Shown here: piece after piece, positions 7,151 through 34,109 of the stretch | Position numbering within the stretch: position 1 is the stretch's first letter | Layout of the letters: every line of letters begins with the position of its first letter | Source of the DNA: Candidatus Beckwithbacteria bacterium GW2011_GWC1_49_16 | Lineage (GTDB): Bacteria; Patescibacteriota; Microgenomatia; UBA1400; CG1-02-47-37 | Reading direction: 5' to 3' | DNA length: 64,000 nucleotides | Assembly (NCBI GenBank): GCA_001029675.1 | Contig: CP011210.1 | Coordinates: 128,193-192,192 of the forward strand | Made by a program: the position numbers and the translations under genes | The notes under the pieces: generated by a model | Told to the model about the DNA's origin: nothing | Seen by the model: the letters and a program-made list of their open reading frames with translations, nothing else | Databases searched by the model: none

Positions 7151-7888
7151 CTAGGGTGAGGAATTAAGGGTTTTTTTGAAGACTTTAAGAAGCGGAGCGT
7201 AGAGGTCGGATTTGCCTTGGGGAATTTTGAGTTCAGAGAGGGTGGATTTGCTGGTGAAACGGATTTTGTCAAGGCCGCGGACAATCAAAAGTGGGGTTTG
7301 TTCGTTACCTTCGCCCATGATGACACCGCCGAAAGCGGCCAGGGCGTCGACGAGATTTGAGTTGGCCTCGACGATTTTGCGGCCGAAGATGTCCGGCTGG
7401 CCGACATAGGAATAGTTAGGATGAAAACCCCAGAAGCCGACGGAGATGCCCATATGGCCCCAGCGAAGCGGCAAACAAAAAGAGTCGGTGACGACGACGC
7501 CGAGGTTTTTTAAACGATACTTATTTCTAAGATGGGTCCAGATTTTTTTGGCAAACAGGTGGGGTTTTTGGGGTAATAAGATGTAGTGGTTTTTACCATT
7601 GGACCGGTCGACGCCGGCGTAAGGGGTTAAAGTTAAGTCCTTGACGGCCAGGCCGTGGGGGGTTTGGGGCAGCCAGCCGTCGGCCTCTTTTTTGATGAGG
7701 CGGATTTTATCTTTAAGAGTCATGTCGGGGGTGATTTTGACGCAGCGACCCTGATGGATGGAGACGAGCTTGGAGGTAATCAAAACCAAGTCTTTTTCTT
7801 TTAAGGCGGGGAGAGACTGGTCAAGGAGGCCAAAGAGATCGTCTTTTGGCGGCAGGAATTTTCTGGTTTTGACCGGAATAAAGTCCAT
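7151..7888 (-). CDS. CofE-like (F420-0:gamma-glutamyl ligase family) protein
   Basis: Block-wise similarity to CofE: ITSKLVSIHQGRCVKI, AGVDRSNG, LGVVVTDSFCLPLRWGHMGISVGFWG, VIMGEGNEQTPLLIVRGLD. Confidence 0.75.
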   Translation of the reverse strand: MDFIPVKTRKFLPPKDDLFGLLDQSLPALKEKDLVLITSKLVSIHQGRCVKITPDMTLKDKIRLIKKEADGWLPQTPHGLAVKDLTLTPYAGVDRSNGKNHYILLPQKPHLFAKKIWTHLRNKYRLKNLGVVVTDSFCLPLRWGHMGISVGFWGFHPNYSYVGQPDIFGRKIVEANSNLVDALAAFGGVIMGEGNEQTPLLIVRGLDKIRFTSKSTLSELKIPQGKSDLYAPLLKVFKKTLNSSP

Positions 7889-7905
7889 GAGTTAGGATAT
7901 TATAA

Positions 7906-17468: not shown

Positions 17469-17723
17469 ATGAAACAACTTCAAGGTAAACAGGATAAAGT
17501 TGAACAATCCCTGGCGCGGATTGAGGGGCAGGTGCGGGGCATCAGCAAGATGTACGGCGAGGGTAAGCCCTGTTTGGACGTGGTGCAGCAGGTGGCCGCT
17601 GCCCGGGAAGCTTTGGGGAGAATCGGCAGGGAGCTTCTTAAAGATGAAGCCACTCTGTGTATGACTAGCGAGAAAGAGAAACAAAAGTTTGACAAAATTT
17701 TAAAGCAGTTATTTAAAAGCTAG
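17469..17723 (+). CDS. CsoR/RcnR-family (DUF156) transcriptional repressor, two-Cys CstR-like
   Basis: The helical 84-aa protein contains ARIEGQVRGI. Cys35 and Cys64 occupy the X and Z sensor positions. There is no His at the Y position. Confidence 0.75.
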   Translation: MKQLQGKQDKVEQSLARIEGQVRGISKMYGEGKPCLDVVQQVAAAREALGRIGRELLKDEATLCMTSEKEKQKFDKILKQLFKS

Positions 17724-17732
17724 GAGTTATAT

Positions 17733-18059
17733 ATGCCAGCAGGGCATTTTACCGATCAAGACTTTGAGGACAAAGTCTTAAAGCAAAAAGGAGTGTTTTT
17801 CGTCGACTTTTACGCCGACTGGTGCGGGCCGTGTAAAATCTCCGGCCCGATCATCGACAAGCTGGCTGATGAGTACCAAGGCAAGCTGACTTTCGGCAAG
17901 GTCAATGTCGATGAGAACCAGGCCACCAGCCAAAAGTACGGGGTGATGAGCATCCCGACGGTGGTGGTTTTAAAAGACGGCCAAGAAGTCGATAGGATGA
18001 TCGGCTTTGCCGGCGAGGAAGGCTATGTCAAGATGATTAAGAAGGCGCTGGGGGAATGA
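17733..18059 (+). CDS. trxA: thioredoxin
   Basis: WCGPCK active site. Length is 108 aa. Confidence 0.9.
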   Translation: MPAGHFTDQDFEDKVLKQKGVFFVDFYADWCGPCKISGPIIDKLADEYQGKLTFGKVNVDENQATSQKYGVMSIPTVVVLKDGQEVDRMIGFAGEEGYVKMIKKALGE

Positions 18060-19027
18060 ACGAAGTGCGTAAAGTGATCATCATCGGGTCGGGGCCGGCG
18101 GGGTATGCCGCGGCGCTTTACAACGCCAGGGCAGCCCTGGTACCGTTGGTTTTGGCCGGGGGAAAATGGGGCGGGCAGTTGATGCTGACGACTAAGGTGG
18201 AAAACTGGCCGGGGAGTAACGAGGGTATCATGGGGCCGGATTTGATGGAAAAGATGCGCCAACAGGCTAAAAAGTTTGGCGCCGAGATCGTGGACAAGAA
18301 TGTGACGGCGGTGGATTTTTCGAAAAGGCCGTTTGAGATTCACCTCGGAGGAGTTCCGCCGGCCGGCGGACCACCGTCCGAGGTGTATTTGGCCGAGGCG
18401 GTGATCGTGGCTACCGGGGCAGAGGCCAAGATGCTTGAAGTTGGCGAGGAGAAGTTTTTGGGCCGGGGAGTGTCGACCTGCGCCGTCTGCGACGCGCCGT
18501 TTTACAAGGACAAAATCACTTTCGTGGTGGGCGGGGGCGACGCGGCCATGGAAGAGGCTCTGGCCTTGGTCAAGCACGCCAGGGAGGTGATTATAGTTCA
18601 CAGAAGAGACCAGTTTCGGGCTTCGCAAATCATGCAAGATCGGGTGTTAAAAGACCACGCAGACAAGATTAAAGTCATCTGGGACAGCCAGGTTGCCGGA
18701 GTGGCGGGGGAAGAGAATTTAACCAAGATTGTGGTGGAGAATGTTAAAACTCAAGCCAAACAAGAGTTAGCGGTTGACGGTTTGTTTATAGCCATTGGCC
18801 ATAAACCTAATACCCAAATTTTCAAAGGCCAGCTGGAACTTGATAAAAAGGGGTATTTGGTAACCCGTTGGGGTGATTTAGGAAACTTTCCCACCCAAAC
18901 CAGCGTCACAGGCGTTTTTGGCGCGGGGGACGTGGTGGATTTTAGGTATCGCCAGGCAGTGACCGCGGCCGGTTTTGGAGTCATGGCCGCTCTGGACGCG
19001 GAGCGCTGGCTGGAACAGCAAGGATGA
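18056..19027 (+). CDS. trxB: thioredoxin reductase
   Basis: FAD motif IIIGSGPAGYAAA, redox CAVCDA, NADPH motif GGGDAAMEEA. Confidence 0.9.
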   Translation: MNEVRKVIIIGSGPAGYAAALYNARAALVPLVLAGGKWGGQLMLTTKVENWPGSNEGIMGPDLMEKMRQQAKKFGAEIVDKNVTAVDFSKRPFEIHLGGVPPAGGPPSEVYLAEAVIVATGAEAKMLEVGEEKFLGRGVSTCAVCDAPFYKDKITFVVGGGDAAMEEALALVKHAREVIIVHRRDQFRASQIMQDRVLKDHADKIKVIWDSQVAGVAGEENLTKIVVENVKTQAKQELAVDGLFIAIGHKPNTQIFKGQLELDKKGYLVTRWGDLGNFPTQTSVTGVFGAGDVVDFRYRQAVTAAGFGVMAALDAERWLEQQG

Positions 19028-19467
19028 TAGAGGTACTTAGAAGATTTCTAGGGCCAGCCCAGATTTTAGAGAAGGAAGATGTAGTGGTTGGGTCTGATTT
19101 CGATTTAGAAACAATAGGCGGAGAAAAGAGAAATTTATGGGTAGGGGAGAAGTTAGAGTTGGTGGCGGGAAATTTTAAGGGGGAGGGGGCGGTTTTGGAA
19201 ATTAAGGGTCCGCGAGAGGCATGGTTGTCCTTACACCACATTGATGGCGGTTTAAACTTTGTGTGTCACTTTTGGACCAATGGTGGATTAACAGCGGGAA
19301 AAGGTGAACACCCTTATCCTGGGACGAACCGATTTAACTGGCAGATAGGGAAGGGCAAGAATTTTGTCACCCTTGATGTGGATACGGGTTGTTTAATCGC
19401 CTTTGATTTAGGAACGATGAGGCAGGTAAGATTAAGATTGAAGGAAAGCCAAAAAACTGACGGTTGA
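19024..19467 (+). CDS. hypothetical protein
   Basis: A 147-aa ORF coupled to trxB by a 4-nt overlap. Confidence 0.45.
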   Translation: MIEVLRRFLGPAQILEKEDVVVGSDFDLETIGGEKRNLWVGEKLELVAGNFKGEGAVLEIKGPREAWLSLHHIDGGLNFVCHFWTNGGLTAGKGEHPYPGTNRFNWQIGKGKNFVTLDVDTGCLIAFDLGTMRQVRLRLKESQKTDG

Positions 19468-19492
19468 CAAAAAAAATTATCTTTGTTGTAAT
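19464..19492 (+). promoter_or_regulatory. putative promoter TTGACA-N17-TGTAAT upstream of the dsbA-like gene
   Basis: Hexamers are at 19464-19469 and 19487-19492. The start codon is at 19500. Confidence 0.35.
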
Positions 19493-19499
19493 TTAGTTC

Positions 19500-20258
19500 A
19501 TGGCCGAAGCTAAAAAAGAAACCAAAAAGGGCAAAAGCTTACTCCAACCGATTTTGATTGGTTTGTTAGTGATTGCCGCTTTTGCCATCGGCAGCATGTG
19601 GACGGAACTTAAAATGCTCAAAGGCGGGACGGGATTGGTGGGGACGACTCAGCAGGCAGGCCAGGGGGCGGCCGGTAGTGAAGCGGCGCCGGAAGAAATT
19701 ACCGAGTTGACCGATGAGCAGTGGCAGGAAGTTTTGGCCAAGCCGGCAGCGGTTAAAGGAGACGAAGGGGCAGAAGTAATCATGGTGGAGTTTACCGATT
19801 ATCAGTGCCCGTTTTGTAAGCGCCATTTTGACCAAACCGCAGCCCAAATCGATCAGGAATACACTGCTACGGGTAAAGTGCGTTACGTGATTCGGGATTT
19901 GCCTTTGTCTTTCCACCAAAATGCCCACGCGGCGGCCGAGGCGGCCCGGTGTGCCGGCGACCAGGAAGCCTATTTTGAATACCACGATAAGCTGTTTGAG
20001 ACCCAGACCGCTTGGGCGGAACTGGCTGACCCGAATGAGACTTTTAGCGGTTATGCCGGTGAACTGGGGCTTAATAGGTCAACTTTCTCCAGTTGTCTGA
20101 CCGACGGCAAGTATAAGGCCCAAGTGGATGAGGATTTGGGGCTAGCCCAAAAAGTGGGCGCCAATGGCACGCCGACTTTCTTCATCAACGGCAAGGCATT
20201 GGTCGGGGCCCAACCCTTTGCGGCCTTTAAGGCCATGCTCGACGCGGAACTTAATTAG
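19500..20258 (+). CDS. DsbA-family thiol:disulfide oxidoreductase with an N-terminal TM anchor
   Basis: CPFC active site in a thioredoxin-fold domain. The N-terminal hydrophobic helix is LLQPILIGLLVIAAFAIGSMW. Confidence 0.8.
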   Translation: MAEAKKETKKGKSLLQPILIGLLVIAAFAIGSMWTELKMLKGGTGLVGTTQQAGQGAAGSEAAPEEITELTDEQWQEVLAKPAAVKGDEGAEVIMVEFTDYQCPFCKRHFDQTAAQIDQEYTATGKVRYVIRDLPLSFHQNAHAAAEAARCAGDQEAYFEYHDKLFETQTAWAELADPNETFSGYAGELGLNRSTFSSCLTDGKYKAQVDEDLGLAQKVGANGTPTFFINGKALVGAQPFAAFKAMLDAELN

Positions 20259-20301: not shown

Positions 20302-20670
20302 TTGAAAATTCTGATTATTTATGATATTGGTGTCAGTATTATGGAAGGAGAGAGGAAATTTGACAGAGGTGGAGTCGGAGAAGAGTTTACGGTTAAAGCC
20401 GGAACCCCTCTTGAAGCTCTTATGAGTTTAAGGGCGTCGGTGATAATGTCAGAAAGGATGCCGACCATGATACAGAGAGGAGAAGCCAGGCGAAAGTCTT
20501 TTTTAGACGCGGTGCGATTTTTAAGAAGAACACCCGATGTAGACAAAAGAAAATCTTTATTAGAGGGTCTTAGGTCGACCGAGCCTGGGGTAGCCCAAAA
20601 AGTAGAGCGGACTTTGAACTTAACCAAGGCAATTGTGGTGATGATGCAGACGGCTAAAAGCCAGGGTTGA
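20302..20670 (+). CDS. hypothetical protein
   Basis: A 122-aa ORF. The start is uncertain. Confidence 0.3.
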   Translation: MKILIIYDIGVSIMEGERKFDRGGVGEEFTVKAGTPLEALMSLRASVIMSERMPTMIQRGEARRKSFLDAVRFLRRTPDVDKRKSLLEGLRSTEPGVAQKVERTLNLTKAIVVMMQTAKSQG

Positions 20671-21596
20671 AAACGGTAGGGTTTGGTATAATTGGCGCTA
20701 TGAAGAAATTGGCACTTGGGTGTTTGAGTTTCATTATGTTTTTGTCTCTGGCGGTTGTAGTTCCCGCCTACGTCCAAGGCTTCGGCGAGGCAAAGGAAGC
20801 CACCGAGGCGGCGTCGACGGTGGCGACCGAGTCGGCCACCAAGCAAATCGAAGCGGCGGTTAAGGAGGACATTACCGAGAGAACCTCGCCGGCCAAAGGC
20901 AGACTAGAGCGGTATTTAGCCGAGAAGGAGTTGGGAGAGCTTTCTTACAGGAACTTTTTACAGCACGCCATTAGAAGAGCGGTAGCCCAGGGAGTCTCGG
21001 CCAACACCATCGTTTTGGTGCTACTTTTTCCGTTGGTGGCAGGGTTGATTGCCGCTGGCCGCCATCTTTTGGGACTAACCGGATTTGGCATTTTTGTGCC
21101 GGCGATGCTGGCGGTGGCATTCCTTGCTACCGGGATCAAGGTGGGCATGGTTTTGTTTGTAGTGATTTGGCTTTTGGCGACTGCCTCCAGGGGGTTGACG
21201 GGCAGGTTAAAGCTGCAGTATCTACCGCGAATGGCGCTGTTGATGTGGTTTGTGTCGGTGGGGGTGTTGGCGGTGATGCTCGCGGCAGTCAACATCAACT
21301 TTGGGGAACTCTCGGCCGTGTCGATTTTTCCGATCTTGATTTTGATGTTACTAGCCGAAAACTTTATCGAAGTCCAGGCGGGCAAAAGCGGCCGGGAGGC
21401 TTTTCTGGTGACTTTGCAGACTATCATTATGGCGGTAGCGGCGGCTTTGGTGCTGCGGCTTGATCTGGTGCAGCGCCTGGTGCTTTTAAACCCGGAAATT
21501 TTTCTGCTCGCGGTGGCAATATTTGACGTTTACGTGGGCCGCTACGTGGGCTTGAGGGCTTTGGAGTGGGTGAAGTTTAAAAAACTACTTAGATAA
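20667..21596 (+). CDS. polytopic membrane protein, 7TM_transglut-like
   Basis: Signal/TM N-terminus followed by 6-7 TM helices. It is positioned immediately upstream of an ATPgrasp_ST-type ligase, as in known amidoligase operons. Confidence 0.45.
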   Translation: MKTVGFGIIGAMKKLALGCLSFIMFLSLAVVVPAYVQGFGEAKEATEAASTVATESATKQIEAAVKEDITERTSPAKGRLERYLAEKELGELSYRNFLQHAIRRAVAQGVSANTIVLVLLFPLVAGLIAAGRHLLGLTGFGIFVPAMLAVAFLATGIKVGMVLFVVIWLLATASRGLTGRLKLQYLPRMALLMWFVSVGVLAVMLAAVNINFGELSAVSIFPILILMLLAENFIEVQAGKSGREAFLVTLQTIIMAVAAALVLRLDLVQRLVLLNPEIFLLAVAIFDVYVGRYVGLRALEWVKFKKLLR

Positions 21597-21610
21597 GTGG
21601 TTGGGGGATT

Positions 21611-22939
21611 ATGAGGCGCAGCGACATTTTGGGCATGAACGCCAGAAACCACTTGTATCAGTCGCGCTACAACAAGCCCAAGGGTAAAAAGATTGCCGGC
21701 TCGAAGTTACTGACTAAGTCGACTTTGAGAAAAGCGAGGCTGGCCGTGCCTAAACTTTACCGGGTGTTTAAAAGAGAAGAGGCGGTGGAAAAGTATGATT
21801 TTATGAAGCTGCCGGAGAGTTTTGTGGTCAAGCCCAGCCAGGGTTTGGGCGGAGAAGGGATTTTGGTAATTGAGCGAGGAGGGGAATATGCCGGCGAGTG
21901 GGTGACGGTGGACAAACAGTTGGTGGCAGCCAACGATTTAAGGCTTCACATCAAGGATATCTTGGCGGGCAAGTACTCGATGCATGATTTGCCGGACACG
22001 GCCTTTGTGGAGGAGAGGGTGAGGGTGCACCCGAGATTTAGCCCAATTTCCTTTCAGGGGACGCCGGATATAGGGGTGTTGGTGTTTAACCGGGTGCCGG
22101 TGATGGCCTTTTTGCGGTTGGCGACCAGAGAATCTCACGGCAAAGCCAACATGTTTCAGGGGGCGGTGGCCTGCGGCATTGACATGGCCACCGGAGTGAC
22201 CACCGACGCGGTCAGACACACCAGCCAGATTACTTTTTTCCCGGGAACCAGAAGGAAGCTTAGAGGCATTAGGGTTCCCCGGTGGGATAAAGTTTTGAGG
22301 CTGGCGGTGGAGGCGGCCGAGGCGGTGGGGTTGGGGTTTTGCCGGGTGGACGTGGCGCTTCAGCCGAAGTTAACCCGTGAGGGGAAACTGAAAAGCAAGC
22401 CGATGGTGCTGGAGGTCAATTCCCAACCGGGCTTGAAAATTCAGCTGGCCAATGCGGCGGGGTTAAGGCGGAGACTGACGCGGGTTGAGGGGCTTAAGGT
22501 GAAGACGGTGAGGCAAGGTTTGGAGATCGGCAAGCAATTGTTCGCCGCTCGGGACGAAGCCGAGTCGATTCAGGGCGGGGTGGTGCACGTGGGGGTGTTT
22601 GAGAACCTGGAAGTGGAGGATTTTTTGGGAGAAAAACACCAAGTGGCGGCCAAGATTGACACCGGCGCCTTTAGGACCTCGATCGACGAGGCTTTGGCCA
22701 AAAGGCTGGGGTTGACAGACCCGGAAAACGTGCTGTGGAACGTGGGTTATAGAAGCGCCTTGGGCAGGGAAGAGCGGAAAGTGGTGGGGCTGACTTTTTG
22801 GCTTCGCGATAAAAAGATCAAGACCAGCGCTTCGGTGGCAGACAGGTCTAAACTCAAACGGCCGATGATTGTCGGCAGGAGGGATTTATTGGGATTTTCT
22901 TTGCGGGTGAGAGAGAAGGAAGCCGAGCAGGAGGCTTAA
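21611..22939 (+). CDS. alpha-L-glutamate-ligase-related ATP-grasp (ATPgrasp_ST) fused to a retropepsin-like Zn_protease (DUF785) domain
   Basis: N-terminus ILGMNARNHLY...KLLTK. ATP-grasp core FVVKPSQGLGGEGI. C-terminal AKIDTGAFRTS is the retropepsin-like DTGA signature. Confidence 0.65.
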   Translation: MRRSDILGMNARNHLYQSRYNKPKGKKIAGSKLLTKSTLRKARLAVPKLYRVFKREEAVEKYDFMKLPESFVVKPSQGLGGEGILVIERGGEYAGEWVTVDKQLVAANDLRLHIKDILAGKYSMHDLPDTAFVEERVRVHPRFSPISFQGTPDIGVLVFNRVPVMAFLRLATRESHGKANMFQGAVACGIDMATGVTTDAVRHTSQITFFPGTRRKLRGIRVPRWDKVLRLAVEAAEAVGLGFCRVDVALQPKLTREGKLKSKPMVLEVNSQPGLKIQLANAAGLRRRLTRVEGLKVKTVRQGLEIGKQLFAARDEAESIQGGVVHVGVFENLEVEDFLGEKHQVAAKIDTGAFRTSIDEALAKRLGLTDPENVLWNVGYRSALGREERKVVGLTFWLRDKKIKTSASVADRSKLKRPMIVGRRDLLGFSLRVREKEAEQEA

Positions 22940-22946
22940 TAAATCA

Positions 22947-24491
22947 ATGTTGTTTGTTGATAGCGATTGGCAGAAAAGCAAAGAGGCGGTACGGCAGGCG
23001 CTTGGTCGGGTTGATAAAAATTTGGTCGGCATCGGGGTGACGGCGTTTAACCGGATCAGCCCCGCCTTGGTATCGGATAAGTTTCAGTTGGTGTGCCACC
23101 GGGCCGGTTCGGATTTGCCATATTTGAGAAAAATTGCCAAAGTGACGGCTATCTCCGAGAGTTGGCCGGAAACGGCGGGGATGACGAGGTACAACAGTTT
23201 GGCGATTTTACAACACCCGGGAGTGGAGCAGTATTTGACCAGTCTAGGTAAGGTTGGGGTGTTTGTTTACAAAACCAGCGAGCGGGTGGACAGGCTGTGT
23301 GACGAGCGGGGTTATCAGTTGATTGCCAACCGGCACGAGATCAGAGATAAGTTTGAGAACAAGAAGGATTTTCGGGTGATCGGTAAAAAAATTGGCCTGA
23401 AGATGATCGGGGGCGAGACGATAAAGATTGATGACTTAAGCGACGAGAAATATGGAGAGTTAGTTGGTAAGATGGGGGATAAACTTGTTCTGCAGCTGAC
23501 CGAGTTGTCCCGCGGCGGCGGGTCGGGAACTTTTTTTATTAACAACAAGGGTGATCTTGAAAAATTCAGAGAAGTGGTGGCGGAAAAAGGGGAGAATCGG
23601 GAAGAAGAGGAGAAGCTGACGTTTGTCAATGTGACCCAGTTTGTCGAGGGAATTGCCGGCAGCATTACCGGCTGTGTCACAAGAGAAGGGGTGCTGACCG
23701 GGGTAGTTCAGACCCAGGTGGTGGACGTGCCCGAGCTGGTGCGACGCGACACCGGCCGCAGTGGAGTGTTTCGGGGGCACGACTGGAGTGTATTTCACTA
23801 TTCGGACAAGGTTCAAAGACAGGCCGAGAAGATGGCCGAGGCTTTGGGCGGCTTTATGGCGAAAGAGGGCTATAAGGGGATTTTTGGCATTGATTTGATC
23901 ATCGACCGGGAGCGGGACGAGGTGTACCCGGTGGAGTGCAACCCCCGCTACACCGGGGCGTTTCCGGTTTACAGCCTGCTTCAGGCGCAAGCGAACGAAG
24001 TGCCGCTGGACGTGTTTCAGCTGTTGGAGTTTTTGGGGGTTGACTACGCTTATGATTTTGAGGCGGTCAATCAAAGCTGGAAAACGCCAAAGTTTGGAGC
24101 CCACCTGGTGCTTCACAACCGCGACCACGAGAACTGGGTGAGGGCGGGCGGGGAGCTGGCGGCAGGGGTGTATCGGTTTAAGGTTGAGGCAGACGACAAG
24201 GTGGAGCTGACATTTTTAAGGGAAGGCTTTCAGCCGGAGGATTTGCGGGGAGAGGACGAGTTGGTGTTGACCGACGGGGTGCCTTACAAGGGGGATTTGA
24301 TTAAACCGCATTTACGCTGCGGCAAGTTGATTTTTGCCGGCAAGGTTTTAAACAAGATTCATGACCAGTTGACGGCGGAAGCCAGCGCTGTGGTCAAAGA
24401 AGTTTACCGCCGGTTTGACTTTCAGGTGGTGGACGTGCCCGAGGACGACTGGCGCTGGGAGAGAAGAATGGCTAGTGAAGCAAACGCTTGA
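22947..24491 (+). CDS. ATP-grasp domain protein (second ligase of the cluster)
   Basis: The C-terminal half contains IFGIDLIIDRERDEVYPVECNPRYTG, the ATP-grasp E/N catalytic region. The N-terminal region is unassigned. Confidence 0.5.
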   Translation: MLFVDSDWQKSKEAVRQALGRVDKNLVGIGVTAFNRISPALVSDKFQLVCHRAGSDLPYLRKIAKVTAISESWPETAGMTRYNSLAILQHPGVEQYLTSLGKVGVFVYKTSERVDRLCDERGYQLIANRHEIRDKFENKKDFRVIGKKIGLKMIGGETIKIDDLSDEKYGELVGKMGDKLVLQLTELSRGGGSGTFFINNKGDLEKFREVVAEKGENREEEEKLTFVNVTQFVEGIAGSITGCVTREGVLTGVVQTQVVDVPELVRRDTGRSGVFRGHDWSVFHYSDKVQRQAEKMAEALGGFMAKEGYKGIFGIDLIIDRERDEVYPVECNPRYTGAFPVYSLLQAQANEVPLDVFQLLEFLGVDYAYDFEAVNQSWKTPKFGAHLVLHNRDHENWVRAGGELAAGVYRFKVEADDKVELTFLREGFQPEDLRGEDELVLTDGVPYKGDLIKPHLRCGKLIFAGKVLNKIHDQLTAEASAVVKEVYRRFDFQVVDVPEDDWRWERRMASEANA

Positions 24492-24543
24492 CAGCTTAAG
24501 GTTATAGGTTATAATACGGGCAAATTTTAAAAAAGGACAGAAA

Positions 24544-25383
24544 ATGGTCATCGGCGAAAGACTGGCAGCAAGAGGAGACCAAGCACGACTGGGCACATCT
24601 CATTTAGTGGAAATGGCTACGGGGACCTTAACTTTGGAAAATAACCAGGCGATTGTGGAGCTAATCGAGAGGCAAAATCAGGTAAAGGCCGACCTACGTT
24701 ATCGAAAATTTGAATATATTTACGACTGGGTTCAGAAGGCGAGGGATATTAGGGATTGCGATTTTCATACGGATGAAATTTTCTTGATTTATTTAGAAGG
24801 AAAAGGTTATCAAAAAGGAATTGCTGAAACTGGACTGTTAGTTGAAGGGGTTAACGAGACAGTAATGTATATGGTTGATAGAGAACGAAGAGGTTTAATC
24901 GTAGAAGAGGTGGGATTTTATAGAGAACTTATTGGGAAGGGGGTCACTTTTAGGCTGCCTATATCCCCACAGGGCAAGATTTTTTTTGGAAGAGACAAGA
25001 TTATGGTAAGGTTGGAGGAGAAAAAGCCAGAACCAGAATTTCCTAAGCATGTTAAATCTTACTTTGGTTCTTTAGAGGATGAGAATATTAGTGGTTGGAT
25101 GGGGATGATCAATGTGGTCGATGTTGACCTGATAGAAAAAATGGGAAAATGGCAAGATGGGTTTGATTCTGTAACTTCAGACTTGAAAAGTGGTGGGGAA
25201 GTAAAAAAGAAGCAATACAGAAGACTTGATAAACAAATGAGGTGGATGGAAAAAAGGCTAGCAACCTACGGTAATCAACCACATGATGGATTTGTTGACG
25301 AAGCCGTGGATTTAGTAAGGACGCTGAGAAAATTTGAGCTTACCAAGGAAGTGTTGCAGGCTGATTTTAGGAGTAGTGACTAA
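24544..25383 (+). CDS. hypothetical protein in an AT-rich island
   Basis: A 279-aa ORF with GC below the local average. No motif was recognised. Confidence 0.45.
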   Translation: MVIGERLAARGDQARLGTSHLVEMATGTLTLENNQAIVELIERQNQVKADLRYRKFEYIYDWVQKARDIRDCDFHTDEIFLIYLEGKGYQKGIAETGLLVEGVNETVMYMVDRERRGLIVEEVGFYRELIGKGVTFRLPISPQGKIFFGRDKIMVRLEEKKPEPEFPKHVKSYFGSLEDENISGWMGMINVVDVDLIEKMGKWQDGFDSVTSDLKSGGEVKKKQYRRLDKQMRWMEKRLATYGNQPHDGFVDEAVDLVRTLRKFELTKEVLQADFRSSD

Positions 25384-25480: not shown

Positions 25481-25885
25481 TTATTTCGAATCTTTAATCT
25501 TTGGAAAAGCCATAGAAGCTAGAATTGCACTAATGGTTCCGACTGCAACGTCTCCTAAAAATTCTGGATTTGGTTTTGATAAGTTTTCAACTAAGACATT
25601 AATTAAAGTTACAGAAACAACAGTTAAGGCGTTCCGCTGCGAGTTGGTAAGCCTAAACATTTCTGTTGACTCTATAGGAGTTGATATAATTTCTAGAGAG
25701 GTTATTAAGAATCTGTTTAGATGAAAGAGTGCTTGAGATGCGTTAAAGTTGCCAATGTGATTTTCTAAAAATGTTCCTTGACCAAGAATGTATGGATCAA
25801 TTCTTTTAGCAAAATTCATGGCTACGCCAGCAGTTATACCAATGAAGCCAACTGTTTTTGTTAGAGATCTTTCTGTTTGCGGCAT
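25481..25885 (-). CDS. hypothetical protein, AT-rich
   Basis: A 134-aa ORF. Weak. Confidence 0.35.
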   Translation of the reverse strand: MPQTERSLTKTVGFIGITAGVAMNFAKRIDPYILGQGTFLENHIGNFNASQALFHLNRFLITSLEIISTPIESTEMFRLTNSQRNALTVVSVTLINVLVENLSKPNPEFLGDVAVGTISAILASMAFPKIKDSK

Positions 25886-25926: not shown

Positions 25927-27120
25927 TTGATAGAATACGGTATGAGGAGGGGTAAGATAAAAGTTGCCGTGGGGATTTCTGGTGGGGTCGATTCAGCGCT
26001 GGCGGCGGCGCTTTTGAAAGAGAAAGGGTTTGACGTCACCGGAGTGTTTATGGAGTGCTGGAACGAGCCGGGGTGTAGGACCGACGAGGACAGAAAAGAC
26101 GCGCTTAAAGTGGCCTTGAAGCTAAAAATCCCTTTTAAGGTTTTGGACTTTAAAAAGGAATATAAAAGAAAAGTGGTGGATTGGTTTTTTGGGCAGTACC
26201 AAAAGGGCAGAACGCCTAATCCTGATATAGTTTGTAATAGAGAGATAAAGTTTGGTAGGTTTTTATCGTGGGCAGAAAAGCACGGTTTTGATTATATAGC
26301 TACCGGACATTATGCCAGAATATCGCAAACCGCCCACATGCCTTTCCAGAAAACCACAGGTTCGCTGGCCAGCGCCAGCGACCTCTTGCGTACTCGCCCG
26401 GCTGAGTCGCCTAAGGCGACACCAGCTCAGCCAGGCTCCGTAAGCTTTTCTGTAAAGGACGCGGGCGATTTACGTTTACTTCAGGGTGTAGATAAGCAAA
26501 AGGATCAGACGTATTTTTTGGCGCTGTTGACGCAGAAGCAGTTAGGAAAGGCGATGTTTCCGGTAGGCCACATGTTAAAAAGCCAAGTGAGGCGGGAGGC
26601 GAAAAAGCGGGGCTTGGCCGTTTGGGATAAAAAGGACTCGACCGGGATTTGTTTTATCGGCCACGATTACCGCTTTGACGAGTTTTTGAAAAGAAGGATT
26701 GCCGAGCATCCCGGCGAGGTGGTGGATACTAGCGGTAAAGTAGTCGGCAAGCACCGCGGGGTGGAGTTTTACACCATCGGCCAACGGCACGGGTTTGAGG
26801 TTAAGCTCGCCTCGACCCAAAGACCCAAACTTTATGTGGTTGCCAAAGAAGCAAAGACAAATCGGTTGGTGGTGGGAAGCAAGAAAGACCTTAAAAGAGG
26901 CGAATTTAAAGTTGAGGGGTGGAGCTTAATCGGGGGACCCCGCATCACATTGGGTGCGGGGTTGCGAGTACGCATCAGACACCAGGGGGAGCTTACGGGG
27001 TGTAGGGTTTTGGGAAAAACAGTTAAGCTTAAGAAGTTAGTGGAGGGTGTAGCGTCGGGGCAGGTGGCGGTAATTTACAGGGGGGAGGAGTGTTTGGGCG
27101 GGGGAGTGATTGAGGATTGA
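25927..27120 (+). CDS. mnmA: tRNA 2-thiouridine synthase MnmA
   Basis: PP-loop VGISGGVDSA, plus GHYAR, KDQTYFL and CFIGHDYRF. There is an insertion of about 40 aa between GHYAR and LLQGVD. Confidence 0.9.
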   Translation: MIEYGMRRGKIKVAVGISGGVDSALAAALLKEKGFDVTGVFMECWNEPGCRTDEDRKDALKVALKLKIPFKVLDFKKEYKRKVVDWFFGQYQKGRTPNPDIVCNREIKFGRFLSWAEKHGFDYIATGHYARISQTAHMPFQKTTGSLASASDLLRTRPAESPKATPAQPGSVSFSVKDAGDLRLLQGVDKQKDQTYFLALLTQKQLGKAMFPVGHMLKSQVRREAKKRGLAVWDKKDSTGICFIGHDYRFDEFLKRRIAEHPGEVVDTSGKVVGKHRGVEFYTIGQRHGFEVKLASTQRPKLYVVAKEAKTNRLVVGSKKDLKRGEFKVEGWSLIGGPRITLGAGLRVRIRHQGELTGCRVLGKTVKLKKLVEGVASGQVAVIYRGEECLGGGVIED

Positions 27121-28979: not shown

Positions 28980-29053
28980 GGGCGCTTAGCTCAGTTGGTT
29001 AGAGCGCAGTCCTGATAAGACTGAGGTCCATGGTTCGAGTCCATGAGCGCCCA
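28980..29053 (+). tRNA. tRNA-Ile (anticodon GAT)
   Basis: Cloverleaf with acceptor GGGCGCT/AGCGCCC, anticodon loop CCTGATAAG, T-arm GGTTCGAGTCC. Confidence 0.9.
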
Positions 29054-29091
29054 CAATTTATTTATTCCGTTTGTTAAGATAAAATGTTGCT

Positions 29092-29970
29092 ATGGGTTCT
29101 CAACCTGGTTTACACGAGGTTCCGGCAAGCGAAGAGCTTTCTAAATATGAGAAAAGTGATGTTGTTGCCAAGGTAATTGACTGTATTGATCGTAAACTGG
29201 ATGAGGGACAGACTTCCACTATTTTGCTAACTGGCGGTCCGGGAGTGGGTAAATCAACGGCTTCTTATGAAGTGCTTGATTACTTAAAACTAGAAAGAGG
29301 CTTAGAGTCAGTGTGGATACAAGCTCCCGACATCGGCAGTGAAAAGACAAGAGATAGAATAATCCATATGGGCAACGACAAAGTCTTATTTATAGATTCA
29401 GTTGATAATTTATTTCCTTCTTCTAAAGACCCCGATGAGGTGGCTGAAACAGTGAAGCTATTAAAAGATTTAGCCCAAAAAGGAGAGGGTCCAATAGTTA
29501 TAGCTAACATCCATGATCCCTATTTAGTTAAAAGAGAGATTAAAACAACCCATCTTCCTTTAAGAGACCAAATACTAGGTGATACAGGCTTGTTTTCTGA
29601 TACAAAACAACATTTTGTCGTTGAAGATCGGTTTGTTAATGAAAAAGCCATGAGCGTGGCGGTAAAAAGACTGATAGGTCAGGCTGATATTCACGCGAGT
29701 TGGGCTACCTTTATTCAGCTTGAACTTGAAAAACACGAAGTTAATAAACATAGCGAAACAACCTTTGCATTGTCTTTACTAAAGAAAGATTCTATGCCAG
29801 GGAGTTTGAAGAAATCTTATGTTTTAGGCAGTGAAGATGAGGTCAGGACTTGGTTTAACGATGCTATTGAAGATGCTAGAAAGGTGGGAGAAGAATTTTA
29901 TCGGGCTTATTATGAGCCAGACAGCGAAAGTGAGGCTTTCAAGGGACTAGTGCGATTTGATGTAAGCTAG
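29092..29970 (+). CDS. P-loop NTPase (AAA-like) encoded inside the 16S-23S spacer
   Basis: Walker A LLTGGPGVGKST and Walker B KVLFIDSVD. The gene is AT-rich. It is flanked by a duplicated tRNA-Ile 3' end. Confidence 0.55.
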   Translation: MGSQPGLHEVPASEELSKYEKSDVVAKVIDCIDRKLDEGQTSTILLTGGPGVGKSTASYEVLDYLKLERGLESVWIQAPDIGSEKTRDRIIHMGNDKVLFIDSVDNLFPSSKDPDEVAETVKLLKDLAQKGEGPIVIANIHDPYLVKREIKTTHLPLRDQILGDTGLFSDTKQHFVVEDRFVNEKAMSVAVKRLIGQADIHASWATFIQLELEKHEVNKHSETTFALSLLKKDSMPGSLKKSYVLGSEDEVRTWFNDAIEDARKVGEEFYRAYYEPDSESEAFKGLVRFDVS

Positions 29971-29973
29971 GAT

Positions 29974-29998
29974 CTGGTTCGAGTCCATGAGCGCCCAC
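29974..29998 (+). repeat. direct repeat: second copy of the tRNA-Ile 3' end (TGGTTCGAGTCCATGAGCGCCCAC)
   Basis: 24-nt identity with 29030-29054, immediately after the stop codon of the inserted ORF. Confidence 0.85.
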
Positions 29999-30212
29999 TT
30001 TTAAGTTATTTAAGCTTGACGCGTCTTAATAGTAGTGTTATCATACATTTTGCCAAATTTTTAGGGAGAAAAAACTCTTAAATGCAAACTTTAAACCAAG
30101 GAAAATTAAACCAATGGGGTATTTTGCCGTGTTGATTTAACAGGTTTAAAAGTGAGCGTTTAGGTTAATCTCCCTCAAGGGAGATTTTTTTCGGCAAGGA
30201 TCAAGGTTGGCT

Positions 30213-30285
30213 GGGCCCATGGCGCAGTTGGTAGCGCGTCTCGTTTGCAACGAGAAGGTCGTCGGTTCGACCCCGACTGGGTCCA
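30213..30285 (+). tRNA. tRNA-Ala (anticodon TGC)
   Basis: Acceptor stem with the G3:U70 Ala identity pair, anticodon loop TTTGCAA, T-arm GGTTCGACCCC. Confidence 0.9.
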
Positions 30286-30342
30286 CCGCGTAAAGTCCCG
30301 CTAAGCTGGACCACGCGGCAAGCACGCGTAAAGCAGGCAAGC

Positions 30343-30416: not shown

Positions 30417-30929
30417 GTGAAGAGAATACCGATCTTTATAGCCAAATATTTTGGTCTATTTGAATTAAAGCAGTCGGTGGATGCCTTGGATGTATTAGCC
30501 GAAGAAGGACGTGCCAGGCCACGATAGGCGTCGGGGAGCTGCCAAGAAGCTGTGATCCGGCGGTGTCCGAATGGGAAAACCTCCTCATTAGTAATAGTGG
30601 GGGCCCCGACAGCGCAAGCTTGTCGGGGGGGGAACCCGGGGAACTGAAATATCTAAGTACCCGGAGGAAAAGAAATTAAATAAGATGCCGTCAGTAGCGA
30701 CGAGCGAAAGCGGTCTAGTCCAAACTCCGACATTACGTCGGAGGGTTGTAGGGCTCCAATATGGGACTACGAGAGATAGTCGAACAACTCGGAATAGTTG
30801 GCCAAAGAAAGTGAAAGCCTTGTAGATGAAATTTTGAGTAGCTCTAGGAGATTCCTGAGTACCACGAGAGACGGCAAACTCTTGTGGGAAGCCGGGGCGA
30901 CCACGCTCCAAGACTAAATACTAATACAT

Positions 30930-30970
<41 letters not shown>

Positions 30971-32456
30971 GGGTCGATGACCCAGTGAAATAGTACCTGA
31001 AACCGATTGCTAACAAACAGTGGGAGGGCCGACGTAAGTCGAGCCTGACCGCGTGCCTATTGAAGAATGAGCCGGCGAGTCTTTGCTGGTGGCAAGGTTA
31101 AGTCGCTTGAAGCGACGGAGCCATAGTGAAAGCGAGCCTGAATAGGGCGATTAGTTGCCAGCAGAGGACCCGAAGCCGAGCGATCTATTCATGAGCAGGG
31201 TGAACCTCGAGTGATATCGGGGGGAAGCCCGAACCTGTGTATGTTGCAAAATGCTAGGATGACTTGTGAATAGAGGTAATATGCCAAACGAGCTCGGAGA
31301 TAGCTGGTTCTCCCCGAAATATATTTAGGTATAGCCTTTCCTTATTTAGGCGCAGGGGTAAAGCACTGGATGGGCATTAGGGACTTGTCTCTGATGCTCA
31401 ACCAAACTCTGAATACTGCGTTGATAACGGAAGGAGTCAGTTGCTGGGGGCTAAGCTCCAGCCGCAAAAGGGAAACAACCCAGATCTCCAGCTAAGGTCT
31501 CTAAATCACTTGCTTAGTTTGTAAGGAGGTCGTAGTCCTTAGACAGCCAGGAAGTCGGCTTAGAAGCAGCCATCTTTGAAAGAAAGCGTAACAGCTCACT
31601 GGTTGACGGAAGACGGCGCCGAAAATTTATCGAGGATAAAGCAGTGTACCGAAGCTGAGACCCCGACAGCGCAAGCTTGTCGGGGGGTAGGGGAGCGTTC
31701 TAAGGGCAGTGAAGGGCCGATGTAAATCGCGCCTGGAGCGCTTAGAAGTGAGAATGCCGGCATGAGTAGCGGAACTCCGGTGAGAATCCGGAGGGTCGAA
31801 AGTCCGAGGTTTCCTACGCAACGTTCGTCGGCGTAGGGTTAGTCGGGCCTAAGGCAAGCCCCGTGTAGTGCGGGGGTAGTCGATGGACAACAGGTTAATA
31901 TTCCTGTACCGGTGACCAATCGTTATTCCCGACGCAAGTCGGGATAAACAGCTGGGGTGGGACGGAATTTGAGAAGTCGAGCGTCTTATTGATTTGACGT
32001 CTAAAAGGCGAGTCAGTCCCGATGTGAAAATCAGTCGGGACGACGGCGAGTCTTGATGGAGAGTTCTCCTTTGGGAGAGCAATTCGACCGGCTTAAGTTT
32101 CCGAGAAAAGCATCGCAGCGAGAAGGGTCACCGCCCGTACCGCAAACCGACACAGGTGGACAAGTCGAGTAGACTAAGATCAGCGGAAGAACGGTGGTTA
32201 AGGAACTCGGCAAATTAGCTGGGAGTAATTTTGAGAGATTCCCTGTCCGACGTTACGTCGGACCGCAGCGAAAGAGTGCCAAGCGACTGTTTAACAAAAA
32301 CACAGGTCTATGCAAAGGCGCAAGCCTAGGTATATGGGCTGAAACCTGCCCAATGCCGGAAGGTTAATTGAGAGGGTGACGTCCGACTTCGGTCGTGACC
32401 GAGCCTTCGATCGAAGCCCCGGTGAATGGCGGCTTTAACTATAAGAGTCCAAAGGT

Positions 32457-33119
32457 AGAATCGCTGCCTTTGTAAAATTTTGCTATATGCTGGAAACTCC
32501 GAGAATCTTGAACTACTGCCTGTTTATGTGTAATACTACACATAATGGGAAGTAAAAAAGTTACAAGTGCGGACAATCAGCAGGAAAGGCTAAAAACGAT
32601 TGGTTGGATAGTTGGTTTCACAGATGGTGATGGTTGTTTTTGTATTTCGATAAACAAAAACCACAGATTAAAACTTGGTTGGCAAGTGGTTCCTGAGTTT
32701 GTAATAACTCAAGGAGAGAAAAGCCTAGAGAGCTTAAAACTTGTTAAAAAGTTTTTTAAATGTGGAAGAATCTTTATTAATCGAAGACATGACAACCATA
32801 AGGAAGACCTTCATAGATATTGCGTGAGAAGTATAGCTGACTTAGAAGAAAAGATAATTCCTTTCTTTGAGAAAAATCAGTTAAAAACCTACAAAAGAAA
32901 ATCATTTGAGACTTGGAGTAAAGCAGTGAAGTTGATGATAAACAAAAGACTTCATTTAAGTATGAAAGGGATTAGAAAGTTAGCAGAAATGTCAGCGGAG
33001 ATAAACCAACAGAAACGACCAAAGTTTTTAGAATCCTCAGAGACTATACGCAGAAGTCCCGCTAAGCGGGATAAGATATAGTCCGATCTCATAAGCGATT
33101 ATGAGTTAACATTATTAAG
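32457..33119 (+). mobile_element. group I intron in 23S rRNA (helix 69/71 region, E. coli ~1931 site)
   Basis: Exon 1 ends ...AGTCCAAAGGT and exon 2 resumes AGCGAAGTACCTTGTCGGGTAAGTTCCGAC. The insert ends in G. It contains a LAGLIDADG ORF. Confidence 0.65.
32545..33081 (+). CDS. LAGLIDADG homing endonuclease, intron-encoded
   Basis: LAGLIDADG motif GFTDGDGCF. 178 aa, AT-rich, located inside the 23S intron. Confidence 0.85.
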   Translation: MGSKKVTSADNQQERLKTIGWIVGFTDGDGCFCISINKNHRLKLGWQVVPEFVITQGEKSLESLKLVKKFFKCGRIFINRRHDNHKEDLHRYCVRSIADLEEKIIPFFEKNQLKTYKRKSFETWSKAVKLMINKRLHLSMKGIRKLAEMSAEINQQKRPKFLESSETIRRSPAKRDKI

Positions 33120-33236
33120 AGCGAAGTACCTTGTCGGGTAAGTTCCGACGCGCACGAAAGGTGTAACGACTTGGCAACTGTCTTGACCACTGATCCGGTG
33201 AAATTGAAATGGCTGTGAAGATGCGGCCTATTGACT

Positions 33237-33267
<31 letters not shown>

Positions 33268-33908
33268 ATAACTTGACATTGGTTTATTTAAGTTGATCGT
33301 CTAGGATAGGCGGGACCCCGACTTTATGTCGGGGGCCAGTGTAATACCGCTCGTTAACTTGAGTAAATCTAACTTATGATCTCTGGAAACGGGATTAGGG
33401 ACAGTGTCTGGGAGGTAGTTTCGCTGGGGAGGTGGTTTGCTAAAAAGTACCGCAAACGCGCAAAGGTACCCTTAGCGCGGATAGAAATCGCGCTGAAAGT
33501 GTAAAGGCAAAAGGGTGCTTGACTGTGACACTTACAAGTGAAGCAGGAGCGAAAGCTGGCCTTAGTGATCCTCGAATCCGTTGTGGAACGGATCGGGCTT
33601 ATCGGATAAAAGCTACCCCGGGGATAACAGAGTAGTCGCACCCAAGCGTCCACAGCGACGGTGCGGTTCGCTACCTCGATGTCGGCTCAGGGTATCCTGG
33701 GGGTGTAGAAGCTCCCAAGGGTTGGTCTGTTCGCCCATTAAAACCCTACGTGAGCTGGGTTCAGAACGTCGCAAGACAGTTCGGTCTCTATCCGCAGTCA
33801 ACGTTGGATTCTTGAGGGAAGCTGACCTCAGTACGAGAGGACCAGGTTGGGCCAGTCCCTAGTGTGCCGGTTGTCGCATCAGCGGCACTGCCGGGTAGCT
33901 ACACTGGT

Positions 33909-33946
<38 letters not shown>

Positions 33947-34109
33947 TCCCAAGATGAGGAATCCCATTAAGATCCCTGGGAGACTACCAGGTGATAGGCA
34001 GCCGGTGTAAGTGCCGTAAGGCATTTAGCCTAGCTGTACTAATCGATCGATCGAAAATAGACCAATTTATTTTGGCTATAAAGAACGAGTATTCTCTTTA
34101 AAATAACTT

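Follow-up and report, generated by a model that had tools for sequence, protein, structure and literature searches.

In a 64,000-nt stretch of the genome of Candidatus Beckwithbacteria bacterium GW2011_GWC1_49_16 (contig CP011210.1, positions 128,193 to 192,192; hereafter the window), we identified a three-gene cluster, g1–g2–g3, that encodes a seven-transmembrane (7TM) protein, an ATP-grasp ligase fused to a retropepsin-like protease, and a second ATP-grasp enzyme. The cluster is a previously undescribed architectural variant of the Rlo/Rim systems that build and trim acidic tails, and we consider it probable that the operon works as a membrane-docked system for writing and trimming peptide tails, akin to the Rlo and Rim systems. 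The domain identities, the intact active sites, the co-conservation of the genes and their natural fusions are established observations. These are described below, followed by the mechanism that they suggest, the alternatives to it and the genomic surroundings of the cluster.

Domain composition of the three-gene operon

The cluster consists of three co-directional open reading frames (ORFs) on the plus strand, g1 (20667–21596, 309 amino acids, aa), g2 (21611–22939, 442 aa) and g3 (22947–24491, 514 aa). They are separated by 14 nt (g1–g2) and 7 nt (g2–g3), and a Shine-Dalgarno-like motif lies upstream of g2 and of g3. A sequence-only reading of this DNA had placed a three-gene cluster at 20667–24491, and the ORFs are indeed found there, although g1 most likely starts at the ATG at 20700 (MKKLALG...) and not at the TTG at 20667 that opens the longest ORF, because the database gene call is 298 aa long and the N-termini of homologues begin at this point. 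The same reading had assigned 6–7 TM helices to g1, an ATPgrasp_ST ligase fused to a retropepsin-like domain to g2 and a further ATP-grasp enzyme to g3, and had proposed to examine them by profile hidden Markov models (HMMs) and a structure model of the fusion protein. All these assignments held: the PF14397, PF05618 and PF14402 models score above their Pfam gathering cut-offs, the structure model of g2 shows the ATP-grasp, linker and beta-rich protease regions, and g3 is an ATP-grasp enzyme, refined here to a three-domain biotin-carboxylase fold that is not RimK-type. Our analysis adds four features, namely the lack of a transglutaminase domain in the 7TM protein, the predicted cytoplasmic location of the protease, the nature of g3 as an accessory with a biotin-carboxylase fold, and the absence from the window of a fourth, RimK-type gene that usually accompanies the cluster. 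By profile score and gene order, the cluster falls within the Pfam definitions of its three constituent families and shows the corresponding gene neighbourhood. For each of the three proteins, the nearest named homologues are found in Candidatus Beckwithbacteria, Microgenomates and 'Patescibacteria group' metagenome-assembled genomes.

An extended -10-like element with the sequence TGgTATAAT (20684–20692, plus strand), recognized by its consensus match alone, is located 7 nt 5' of the probable g1 start; it could serve as the operon promoter, possibly giving a leaderless transcript. A perfect sigma-70 promoter, TTGACA-16-TATAAT (24488–24515, plus strand; 12 of 12 consensus positions), is present only after g3, where it overlaps the g3 stop codon, and it likely marks where the operon ends on its 3' side and where an orphan gene unrelated to it (24544–25383) begins. 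The -10 element before the g1 ATG, the Shine-Dalgarno motifs before g2 and g3, and the promoter at the end of g3 together suggest the operon boundaries, and as read from these signals g1–g2–g3 form a real three-gene operon.

The N-terminal ligase domain of g2 (21611–22540, plus strand; residues 1 to about 310) is of the ATPgrasp_ST, or alpha-L-glutamate-ligase-like, type. PF14397 (ATPgrasp_ST) matches residues 12–293 with 192.9 bits against a gathering cut-off of 31.4 bits (E 8.8e-57), and TIGR02291, the model for RloC-type alpha-L-glutamate ligase-like proteins, matches with 256 bits (E 4e-76) over model positions 8–293 of 317. Judged by profile scores, the domain is a relative of the RloC-like TIGR02291 proteins and not an equivalog. 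The ILGMNARN motif quoted in the sequence-only reading lies at residues 6–13. The ATP-grasp residues K74, R245, D247, E268 and N270 are invariant in 34 homologues (invariance in g2 was scored over homologues down to 58% identity), and the domain is strongly basic, with 56 Lys and Arg versus 29 Asp and Glu residues. An AlphaFold2 (AF2) model built from a 34-sequence alignment (predicted local distance difference test score, pLDDT, 84; predicted template-modelling score, pTM, 0.77) lays the protein out as an ATP-grasp domain from residue 1 to about 310, a disordered linker at residues 315–323 (22553–22579, plus strand; pLDDT below 50), and a beta-rich domain at residues 325–435. The Foldseek neighbours of the ligase domain are cyanophycin synthetase, ArgX/LysX, Ddl, PsnB and RimK, the latter represented by the structures 4iwx, 5zct and 7qys.

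The C-terminal domain of g2 (22583–22915, plus strand; residues 325–435) is a RloA/RimB-like aspartic endopeptidase, which carries the catalytic AKIDTGA motif, also quoted in the earlier reading, at residues 347–353 (22649–22669, plus strand) and a GRRD motif, G422-R-x-D425 (22874–22885, plus strand). The match of this domain to PF05618 is marginal (29.4 bits against a cut-off of 27), and it is reinforced by matches to Asp_protease_2 and gag-asp, by a profile match to RloA structures, and by a fold match; the NCBIfam RloA3 model also matches, with 29.7 bits against a cut-off of 210. The best solved relatives found with the protease family profile are the RloA structures 9G59 (E 1.4e-5) and 9G58, followed by Ddi1 and ApRick. 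In a library of viral structures the domain superimposes on a phage acid protease (E 6e-9, TM-score 0.74, root-mean-square deviation 2.9 Å), and retroviral proteases are matched as well. Single-sequence searches of the PDB with g2, g3 and the isolated protease domain gave nothing useful, and family profiles were needed.

The residues K348, D350, T351, G352, A353, R355, R389, K402, R412, R417, G422, R423 and D425 of the retropepsin domain are invariant. Since the catalytic residues of both g2 domains do not vary across homologues, we regard both domains as being under selection as active enzymes. In the HMM alignment, K348, R389 and R412 pair with K24, R94 and R117 of 9G59, and the K-x-D-T-G-A, E-R and D-R-S positions of the two proteins are also aligned. 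These three residues are likely the equivalents of RloA K46, R114 and R137, which were experimentally shown to bind poly-glutamate (PMC12239564). The protease domain contains neither a signal peptide nor a cysteine, and no hydrophobic segment lies between it and the ATP-grasp domain; given these features and its fusion to an ATP-requiring ligase, it is predicted to be cytoplasmic. We also considered g2 as its own substrate, as the protein ends in ...EAxQEA and 60 of 115 close homologues end in QEA; the distant ligase–retropepsin proteins vary at this end and are often basic, and the idea was dropped.

The g1 protein (20700–21596, plus strand; 298 aa) belongs to the PF14402 (7TM_transglut) family, which matches residues 114–307 of the long-ORF protein with 83.1 bits against a gathering cut-off of 25 (E 2.8e-23), covering profile positions 55–247 of 248. 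By hydropathy, it contains one N-terminal signal/anchor helix and seven more hydrophobic segments; the 7TM domain, defined by PF14402 and hydropathy, extends over nt about 21006–21587 (plus strand). The signal/anchor helix is followed by a variable Ala/Thr/Glu-rich hydrophilic linker, a conserved DITERTSP..KG.LE.YL segment, the 7TM domain and a basic cytoplasmic tail. No transglutaminase domain was found in g1, where about 75 low-complexity residues stand between the signal/anchor helix and TM1; the RloB model (NCBIfam NF052267) reaches 77.7 bits against a cut-off of 900 and covers only the C-terminal model positions 311–506 of 508. A transglutaminase Pfam domain is likewise present in none of 120 close g1 homologue clusters, and in the family alignment the distant g1 partners from loci L020 and L021 consist of a bare 7TM domain without an extracytoplasmic part. 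The best-conserved motifs in this alignment are KLQYLPR, ENFIEVQ.GKS and GKYVGLR.LE..KFKKLL. With the loops placed by hydropathy and the positive-inside rule, and the N-terminus taken to be outside, all of these motifs would fall in the cytoplasmic loops or the C-terminal tail. Pfam and NCBIfam profile scans revealed no transporter-family signature on g1. The PADLOC scan gave a single weak match, on g1 (E 0.003), and an anti-phage defence system was rejected in the absence of any PADLOC support beyond it.

The g3 protein (22947–24491, plus strand; 514 aa) is matched by PF02655 (ATP-grasp_3) with 32.1 bits against a cut-off of 23.2 (E 1.5e-7), and its AF2 model is of high quality (pLDDT 93, pTM 0.92). 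The Foldseek matches of this model are biotin carboxylases (E about 1e-19, TM-score 0.55–0.63, identity 14–16%), which are also retrieved by the g3 family profile (E 4e-8). The three-domain ATP-grasp fold, the Gly-rich lid (GGGSG, 23514–23528, plus strand) and the E-x-N-x-R Mg/ATP motif (ECNPR, 23934–23948, plus strand) are shared with biotin carboxylase. The residues K139, D316, E330, N332 and R334 are invariant across g3 homologues, and GGGSG is also conserved.

The general base of biotin carboxylase is E296 in the E. coli enzyme and belongs to the RIQVEH motif. The profile alignment sets EMNTRIQVEH of biotin carboxylase opposite VECNPRYTGAF of g3, so that RIQVEH is replaced by RYTGAF and the general-base Glu is absent. 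The NCBIfam biotin carboxylase model PRK06524 matches g3 with E 6e-45 but with 153 bits against a cut-off of 684. No genes for a biotin carboxyl carrier protein (BCCP) or a carboxyltransferase were found among the ORFs that adjoin the cassette, and g3 is instead linked to a peptide ligase–protease cassette. Because of the sub-cut-off score, the loss of the general base and the lack of partner genes nearby, we classify g3, from its sequence and model, as an intact ATP-grasp enzyme that is neither RimK-type nor a biotin carboxylase. Long forms of g3, about 790 aa in length, were observed in P0228, P0217 and about 15 other proteins (e.g., L020:7001–9391); their extra C-terminal region of about 300 aa has no Pfam match and is unrelated to the 279-aa ORF at 24544–25383 of the window.

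Conservation of the cassette and its accessory genes

Using a metagenome scan with HMM annotation, we collected a set of 74 non-redundant loci, and counted upstream neighbours in the 58 loci with at least 700 nt of upstream sequence and downstream neighbours in the 40 loci whose downstream sequence covers 2 kb or more. In 57 of 58 loci the gene immediately before the ligase–retropepsin gene is the 7TM gene, which in the remaining locus lies 477 nt away. The same order is found in all of 11 species-representative genomes and in 10 loci obtained by an exact protein look-up. Downstream of this core pair, a g3 homologue is present in 30 of 40 loci and a RimK-type ATP-grasp gene, usually convergent, in 24; both genes occur together in 21 loci, at least one of them in 33, and neither in 7. 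Co-conservation in relatives, on which the sequence-only reading had made its proposal depend, is thus borne out by the upstream and downstream counts and by the natural fusions described below.

The family is large, with more than 120 clusters (90% identity level) at least 57% identical to g2 and 1,412 representatives (50% identity level) that match at E <= 1e-3; as far as the homologues indicate, the transglutaminase-free 7TM family with its fused ligase–protease is widespread in Microgenomates. Close relatives are syntenic across the whole region, from thioredoxin reductase and DsbA to mnmA, and gene adjacency among them alone proves little. In some of these relatives g3 is parted from g2 by a PIN toxin–antitoxin pair, GIY-YIG nucleases or an aldo-keto reductase. 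The decisive test of functional association is provided by four distant g3 homologues (33–41% identity), all of which directly follow a 7TM plus ligase–retropepsin pair in otherwise unrelated contexts: next to glycosyltransferases, in the L10/L12 ribosomal operon (twice, with differing surroundings), and in a dnaA/penicillin-binding protein (PBP) region.

Natural gene fusions connect all parts of the cassette. The 7TM domain is fused to the ligase in P0475, P0491 and other proteins, and P0484 combines a transglutaminase, the 7TM domain and the ligase, while the order retropepsin–7TM–ligase is found in P0504. A ligase–retropepsin–g3 fusion occurs in P0386, where residues 463–898 are 32% identical to g3 (E 5e-66), and likewise in P0387. 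Ligase–retropepsin proteins fused to MATCAP (PF08014, the tubulin tyrosine carboxypeptidase family) include P0367 and P0384, which are about 800 aa long and come from relatives in the candidate phyla radiation (CPR), and by length class account for about 45 of 150 representatives; P0367 is GenBank EKD49309.1, mis-named 'ketopantoate hydroxymethyltransferase'. Finally, P0374 is a ligase–retropepsin–YdjC fusion, and in locus L094 MATCAP (7310–8290) and YdjC are encoded by separate genes after the core pair.

From these patterns we classified the cassette genes into an obligate core, formed by the 7TM and ligase–retropepsin genes, and interchangeable accessories that comprise amide ligases, an acetyltransferase and peptidases. 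The accessories found across lineages are g3, the RimK-type ligase, a GNAT protein, MATCAP and YdjC, of which g3 alone is present in this window. A tblastn search of the 64-kb window with six RimK-type and two GNAT partners found no RimK-type or GNAT gene and returned only the ATP-grasp domain of g2, and a search with three RimK-type sequences of the closest relatives gave the same result. In two divergent lineages, the cassette is followed by a DUF3541 (PF12060) gene (L012:10248–11108 and L065:7287–8162), which is a further candidate accessory by its position.

The proposed write-and-trim mechanism and its alternatives

A gene-neighbourhood theme of RimK-like ATP-grasp, 7TM-transglutaminase and retropepsin proteins was reportedly predicted by Iyer, Abhiman, Burroughs and Aravind in Mol Biosyst in 2009, and the cluster follows the same predicted logic of a peptide ligase, a membrane protein and a peptidase acting at the membrane. 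It is therefore a variation on a predicted and partly characterised theme, and its proteins are already present in public databases under generic names. We found no description in the searchable literature of the Patescibacteria architecture, with its ligase–retropepsin fusion, transglutaminase-free 7TM protein and swappable accessories.

The closest characterised counterpart is the RloABC system of Pseudomonas aeruginosa, whose genetic definition dates from as recently as 2025 (Lormand et al., mBio 2025, PMC12239564; RloA structures 9G58 and 9G59). Both systems unite the same three Pfam families in a single operon, with a PF14402 7TM protein, a PF14397/TIGR02291-like ATP-grasp enzyme and a PF05618 retropepsin, and the g2 protease, whose nearest solved relatives are RloA, keeps the K-x-D-T-G-A motif and the likely equivalents of the basic residues that line the channel. 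In contrast to secreted RloA, the protease described here is fused to the C-terminus of the ligase, is predicted to be cytoplasmic and lacks both a signal peptide and disulfide cysteines. The 7TM protein lacks the inactive transglutaminase domain of RloB, an extra ATP-grasp gene with a biotin-carboxylase fold is present, and all three proteins fall far below the NCBIfam Rlo cut-offs. The host belongs to Patescibacteria (Beckwithbacteria), whereas 96% of RloB hits are found in Proteobacteria (PMC12239564). Deletion of rloB or rloC suppresses the lethality of the triple rloA mutant in low-salt medium (PMC12239564), which implies that the RloB and RloC proteins give rise to a product whose removal by RloA is necessary.

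With RimK and RimB, the cluster shares a cytoplasmic ATP-grasp enzyme coupled to a cytoplasmic retropepsin; RimB binds RimK, and here the two activities are fused. The product of RimK is an alpha-L-glutamate polymer, made free or attached to ribosomal protein S6, and RimB and the secreted RloA proteases cut runs of at least 8 Glu (PMC12239564). Disulfide cysteines are found in the periplasmic protease orthologues and not in the cytosolic ones (PMC12239564); the g2 protease, without cysteine or signal peptide, is in this respect like cytosolic RimB and unlike periplasmic RloA. On the other hand, the g2 ligase is a PF14397 protein outside the RimK family proper (TIGR00768, about 38 against 143 bits), the 7TM protein is an obligate partner that has no counterpart in the Rim system, and nothing points to RpsF as the substrate here. 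Since the cluster fails the NCBIfam cut-offs for RloA, RloB, RloC and RimK, we regard it, on profile evidence, as Rlo/Rim-like in its working and not as an orthologous member of either system. The theme put forward in the sequence-only reading, in which enzymes of this kind build and trim peptide tags at the membrane, agrees with the experiments on Pseudomonas RloABC and on RimK/RimB (PMC12239564).

In the mechanism that we propose, the docking, the substrate, the amino-acid specificity, the dimerisation and the role of g3 are the parts that we infer. The basic ligase domain of g2 would dock on the conserved cytoplasmic loops and tail of g1; this step is proposed because the ligase is very basic, the cytoplasmic face of g1 is conserved, and relatives have 7TM–ligase fusions. 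Driven by ATP, the ligase would extend the C-terminal carboxylate of a peptide or protein, most probably with alpha-linked glutamates, to yield an acidic tail or polymer. Retropepsin-like peptidases of clan AA are active as homodimers, with one catalytic Asp contributed by each subunit. Oligomerisation of the ligase could pair two retropepsin domains into such an active dimer, which, through its basic channel, would cut long acidic stretches and thereby limit the tail length or make new primers, in analogy to RimB acting for RimK. The trimming is expected to take place in the cytoplasm, given the covalent link of the protease to an enzyme that needs ATP and the lack of a signal peptide and of cysteines in the protease, and a cytoplasmic location would suit a cell without a periplasm. 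The g3 enzyme may add a different residue as a primer or cap, and in other lineages it would be replaced or joined by the RimK-type ligase, GNAT, a MATCAP-type carboxypeptidase or YdjC.

Several points weigh against this proposal. The substrate, product and amino-acid specificity are established for no PF14397/TIGR02291 ligase, RloC included. The g2 ligase scores under the curated TIGR02291 cut-off (256 vs 314.2 bits) and below the RimK cut-offs (TIGR00768, 38.1 vs 143.4 bits; PF08443, 20.5 vs 21), and its structural matches have moderate TM-scores (about 0.5) and disparate substrates (CphA1, Ddl, LysX). The assignment of glutamate derives from the homology of the protease and from the distant similarity of the ligase to RimK, and R389 and R412 are matched to RloA R114 and R137 by way of the HMM alignment with the structure of an orthologue, in which the numbering is shifted by about 20–22. 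The g3 gene is missing from about a quarter of the cassettes, and its role as a source of primers or caps is a guess. Finally, transport or sensing, and not docking, could be the function of the 7TM protein.

The main rival to the write-and-trim proposal, which we consider possible though distinctly less probable, takes up the last of these points. It holds that g2 polymerises free poly-alpha-glutamate or a cyanophycin-like polymer, that g3 makes the primer, and that the 7TM protein translocates the product to the surface as an envelope or osmoprotective polyanion; the retropepsin would then be a depolymerase that generates primers or sets the chain length, and not an eraser of protein tails. 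The closest Foldseek match of g2 is a cyanophycin synthetase (7wae, E 5e-9), RimK also produces free poly-Glu (PMC12239564), and the location of Pseudomonas RloA outside the cytoplasm implies delivery of the RloBC product to the periplasm. The rlo phenotypes, which comprise hypo-osmotic sensitivity, cell shape and beta-lactam sensitivity, fit this explanation, as do the effect of an RloB homologue on vesicle formation in Shewanella, where it influences vesicle production, and the arrangement of P0504, whose retropepsin lies on the opposite side of the 7TM domain from the ligase. However, both in this window and in over 100 clusters of homologues the protease is fused to the cytoplasmic ligase, which means that trimming would precede any export. 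The conserved surfaces of the 7TM protein are the predicted loops on the cytoplasmic side, and the portion outside the cytoplasm varies or, as in L020 and L021, is lacking, which fits a dock better than an exporter that would function on the outside; the Pfam and NCBIfam scans, as said above, contain no transporter-family signature.

A second alternative, amidation of envelope glycopolymers or peptidoglycan precursors, appears unlikely to us. Here, a membrane-held ligase would add amino acids to the carboxyls of lipid-linked intermediates, with g3 as the second ligase. This explanation would account for the Pfam name of the ligase family ('sugar-transfer-associated' ATP-grasp), for YdjC, a carbohydrate deacetylase-like protein fused or adjacent to the ligase–retropepsin in P0374 and L094, for the Ddl and pseudomurein-type ligases among the weak matches, and for the morphology and beta-lactam phenotypes of Pseudomonas rlo mutants. 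Three glycosyltransferase genes adjoin the cassette in L018 and a PBP lies near it in L021, but glycosyltransferase neighbours are not kept across loci, and the recurrent accessories are peptide ligases and peptidases (RimK-type, MATCAP) and not glycan enzymes. Moreover, the amidation of single glycan residues would hardly account for an invariant, catalytically intact endopeptidase with a predicted basic channel like that of RloA.

That g3 is an ordinary biotin carboxylase, i.e., an acetyl-CoA or pyruvate carboxylase subunit next to a two-gene 7TM–ligase system by chance, is very improbable and was rejected: its leading Foldseek and profile matches, the name of its best NCBIfam match and the unrelated genes inserted between g2 and g3 in several close relatives are in its favour, but they are countered by the score of 153 vs 684 bits, the 14–16% identity to biotin carboxylase structures, the replaced general-base motif, the lack of adjacent BCCP and carboxyltransferase genes, and the linkage of g3 to the core pair in four unrelated contexts and in the P0386 and P0387 fusions.

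Within the write-and-trim proposal, the occurrence of MATCAP and multi-ligase accessories suggests a bolder version, to which we give a rather low probability, namely a prokaryotic C-terminal tail code in which several ligases write distinct residues on the acidic tail of a membrane-proximal protein. The PF14397 domain would elongate the tail, g3 and the RimK-type ligase would prime or cap it, and the erasers would be the fused retropepsin and, in sister lineages, also a MATCAP-type carboxypeptidase, while the 7TM protein would couple the cycle of writing and erasing to an envelope or osmotic signal. The comparison with tubulin tail enzymes (TTL/TTLL, MATCAP), in which an acidic C-terminal tail is extended by ATP-grasp ligases and cut back by peptidases, is an analogy only, with kinship at the level of fold and logic and not of orthology: PF08014 MATCAP domains occur fused to, or next to, relatives of g2, and this window contains no MATCAP gene and no tubulin-like substrate. 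If the tail-code version were true, the enzyme logic of the tubulin code (TTL/TTLL plus MATCAP) would predate eukaryotes and run in ultra-small CPR bacteria.

The variant described here is in effect a natural experiment, in which the protease is tied covalently to the ligase and, in relatives, the ligase to the 7TM protein; the existence of both kinds of fusion argues that the three activities are directed at a single product on the cytoplasmic side of the membrane. The variant indicates that the transglutaminase domain is dispensable, and it takes the range of Rlo-like systems beyond Proteobacteria into much of the Microgenomates/Beckwithbacteria radiation. It also reveals a swappable toolkit, composed of the ligase with a biotin-carboxylase fold, the RimK-type ligase, GNAT, MATCAP and YdjC, that constrains hypotheses on the product towards a peptide tail built by multiple ligases and removed by endo- and carboxypeptidases. 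The single-chain g2 protein, with 442 aa, is a compact biochemical target for this enzyme family.

Genes around the cassette

Upstream of the cassette, a redox gene set (17469–20258) encodes a CsoR-like metal-sensing repressor, thioredoxin, thioredoxin reductase, an unknown 147-aa protein and a membrane-anchored DsbA-like protein. Many Microgenomates (L003, L005–L009, L015–L017) keep this set in synteny with the cassette, which the other contexts do not. Downstream, the mnmA gene for tRNA 2-thiouridylase (25927–27120) is a recurrent neighbour, even at 38–60% ligase identity, and follows the cassette in L002–L006, L010, L015, L018, L065 and L094; its recurrence could reflect ancestral synteny or a functional link. 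The arrangement of DsbA and thioredoxin reductase upstream and mnmA downstream is absent in the contexts L012–14 and L018–L021, and we rejected these genes as functional partners in favour of an inherited gene order.

Three ORFs near the cassette have no homologue in 101 related loci. The first, a 122-aa ORF with a TTG start (20302–20670), occupies an enlarged gap between DsbA and g1, matches no family and may not be a real gene. The second, the 279-aa ORF at 24544–25383, has no Pfam match; it was set apart from the system because a separate perfect promoter precedes it and the related loci contain no homologue. The third is a convergent 134-aa ORF on the minus strand (25481–25885). The latter two fill the slot between g3 and mnmA that in relatives holds the convergent RimK-type gene, which suggests, from gene position, that the RimK-type gene has been replaced in this lineage. 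With no Pfam, NCBIfam or PADLOC matches and no homologue in the 101 loci, all three ORFs were rejected as parts of the system.

An rRNA operon is located just downstream of the cassette. Its 16S–23S spacer (28980–30287, reported as about 1.6 kb) contains a 292-aa ORF (29092–29970) between tRNA-Ile(GAT) and tRNA-Ala(TGC), with matches to AAA and novel-STAND NTPases; a protein gene in an rRNA spacer is unusual. The 23S rRNA gene (30454–34064) is 3611 nt long against a model of 2925 positions, with about 690 nt inserted, including a LAGLIDADG ORF (32545–33081). LAGLIDADG homing-endonuclease ORFs in 23S insertions are typical of rRNA introns in CPR bacteria, and a LAGLIDADG ORF is also found downstream of the cassette in L018.

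The few minus-strand genes of the window include a giant 2547-aa ORF (52307–59950) with no Pfam match at E <= 1e-3, which lies within the only stretch of negative GC skew. The skew is strongly positive (+0.1 to +0.36) in 31 of 32 2-kb bins and most long ORFs are on the plus strand, which is consistent with the window being a segment of a single leading-strand replichore.

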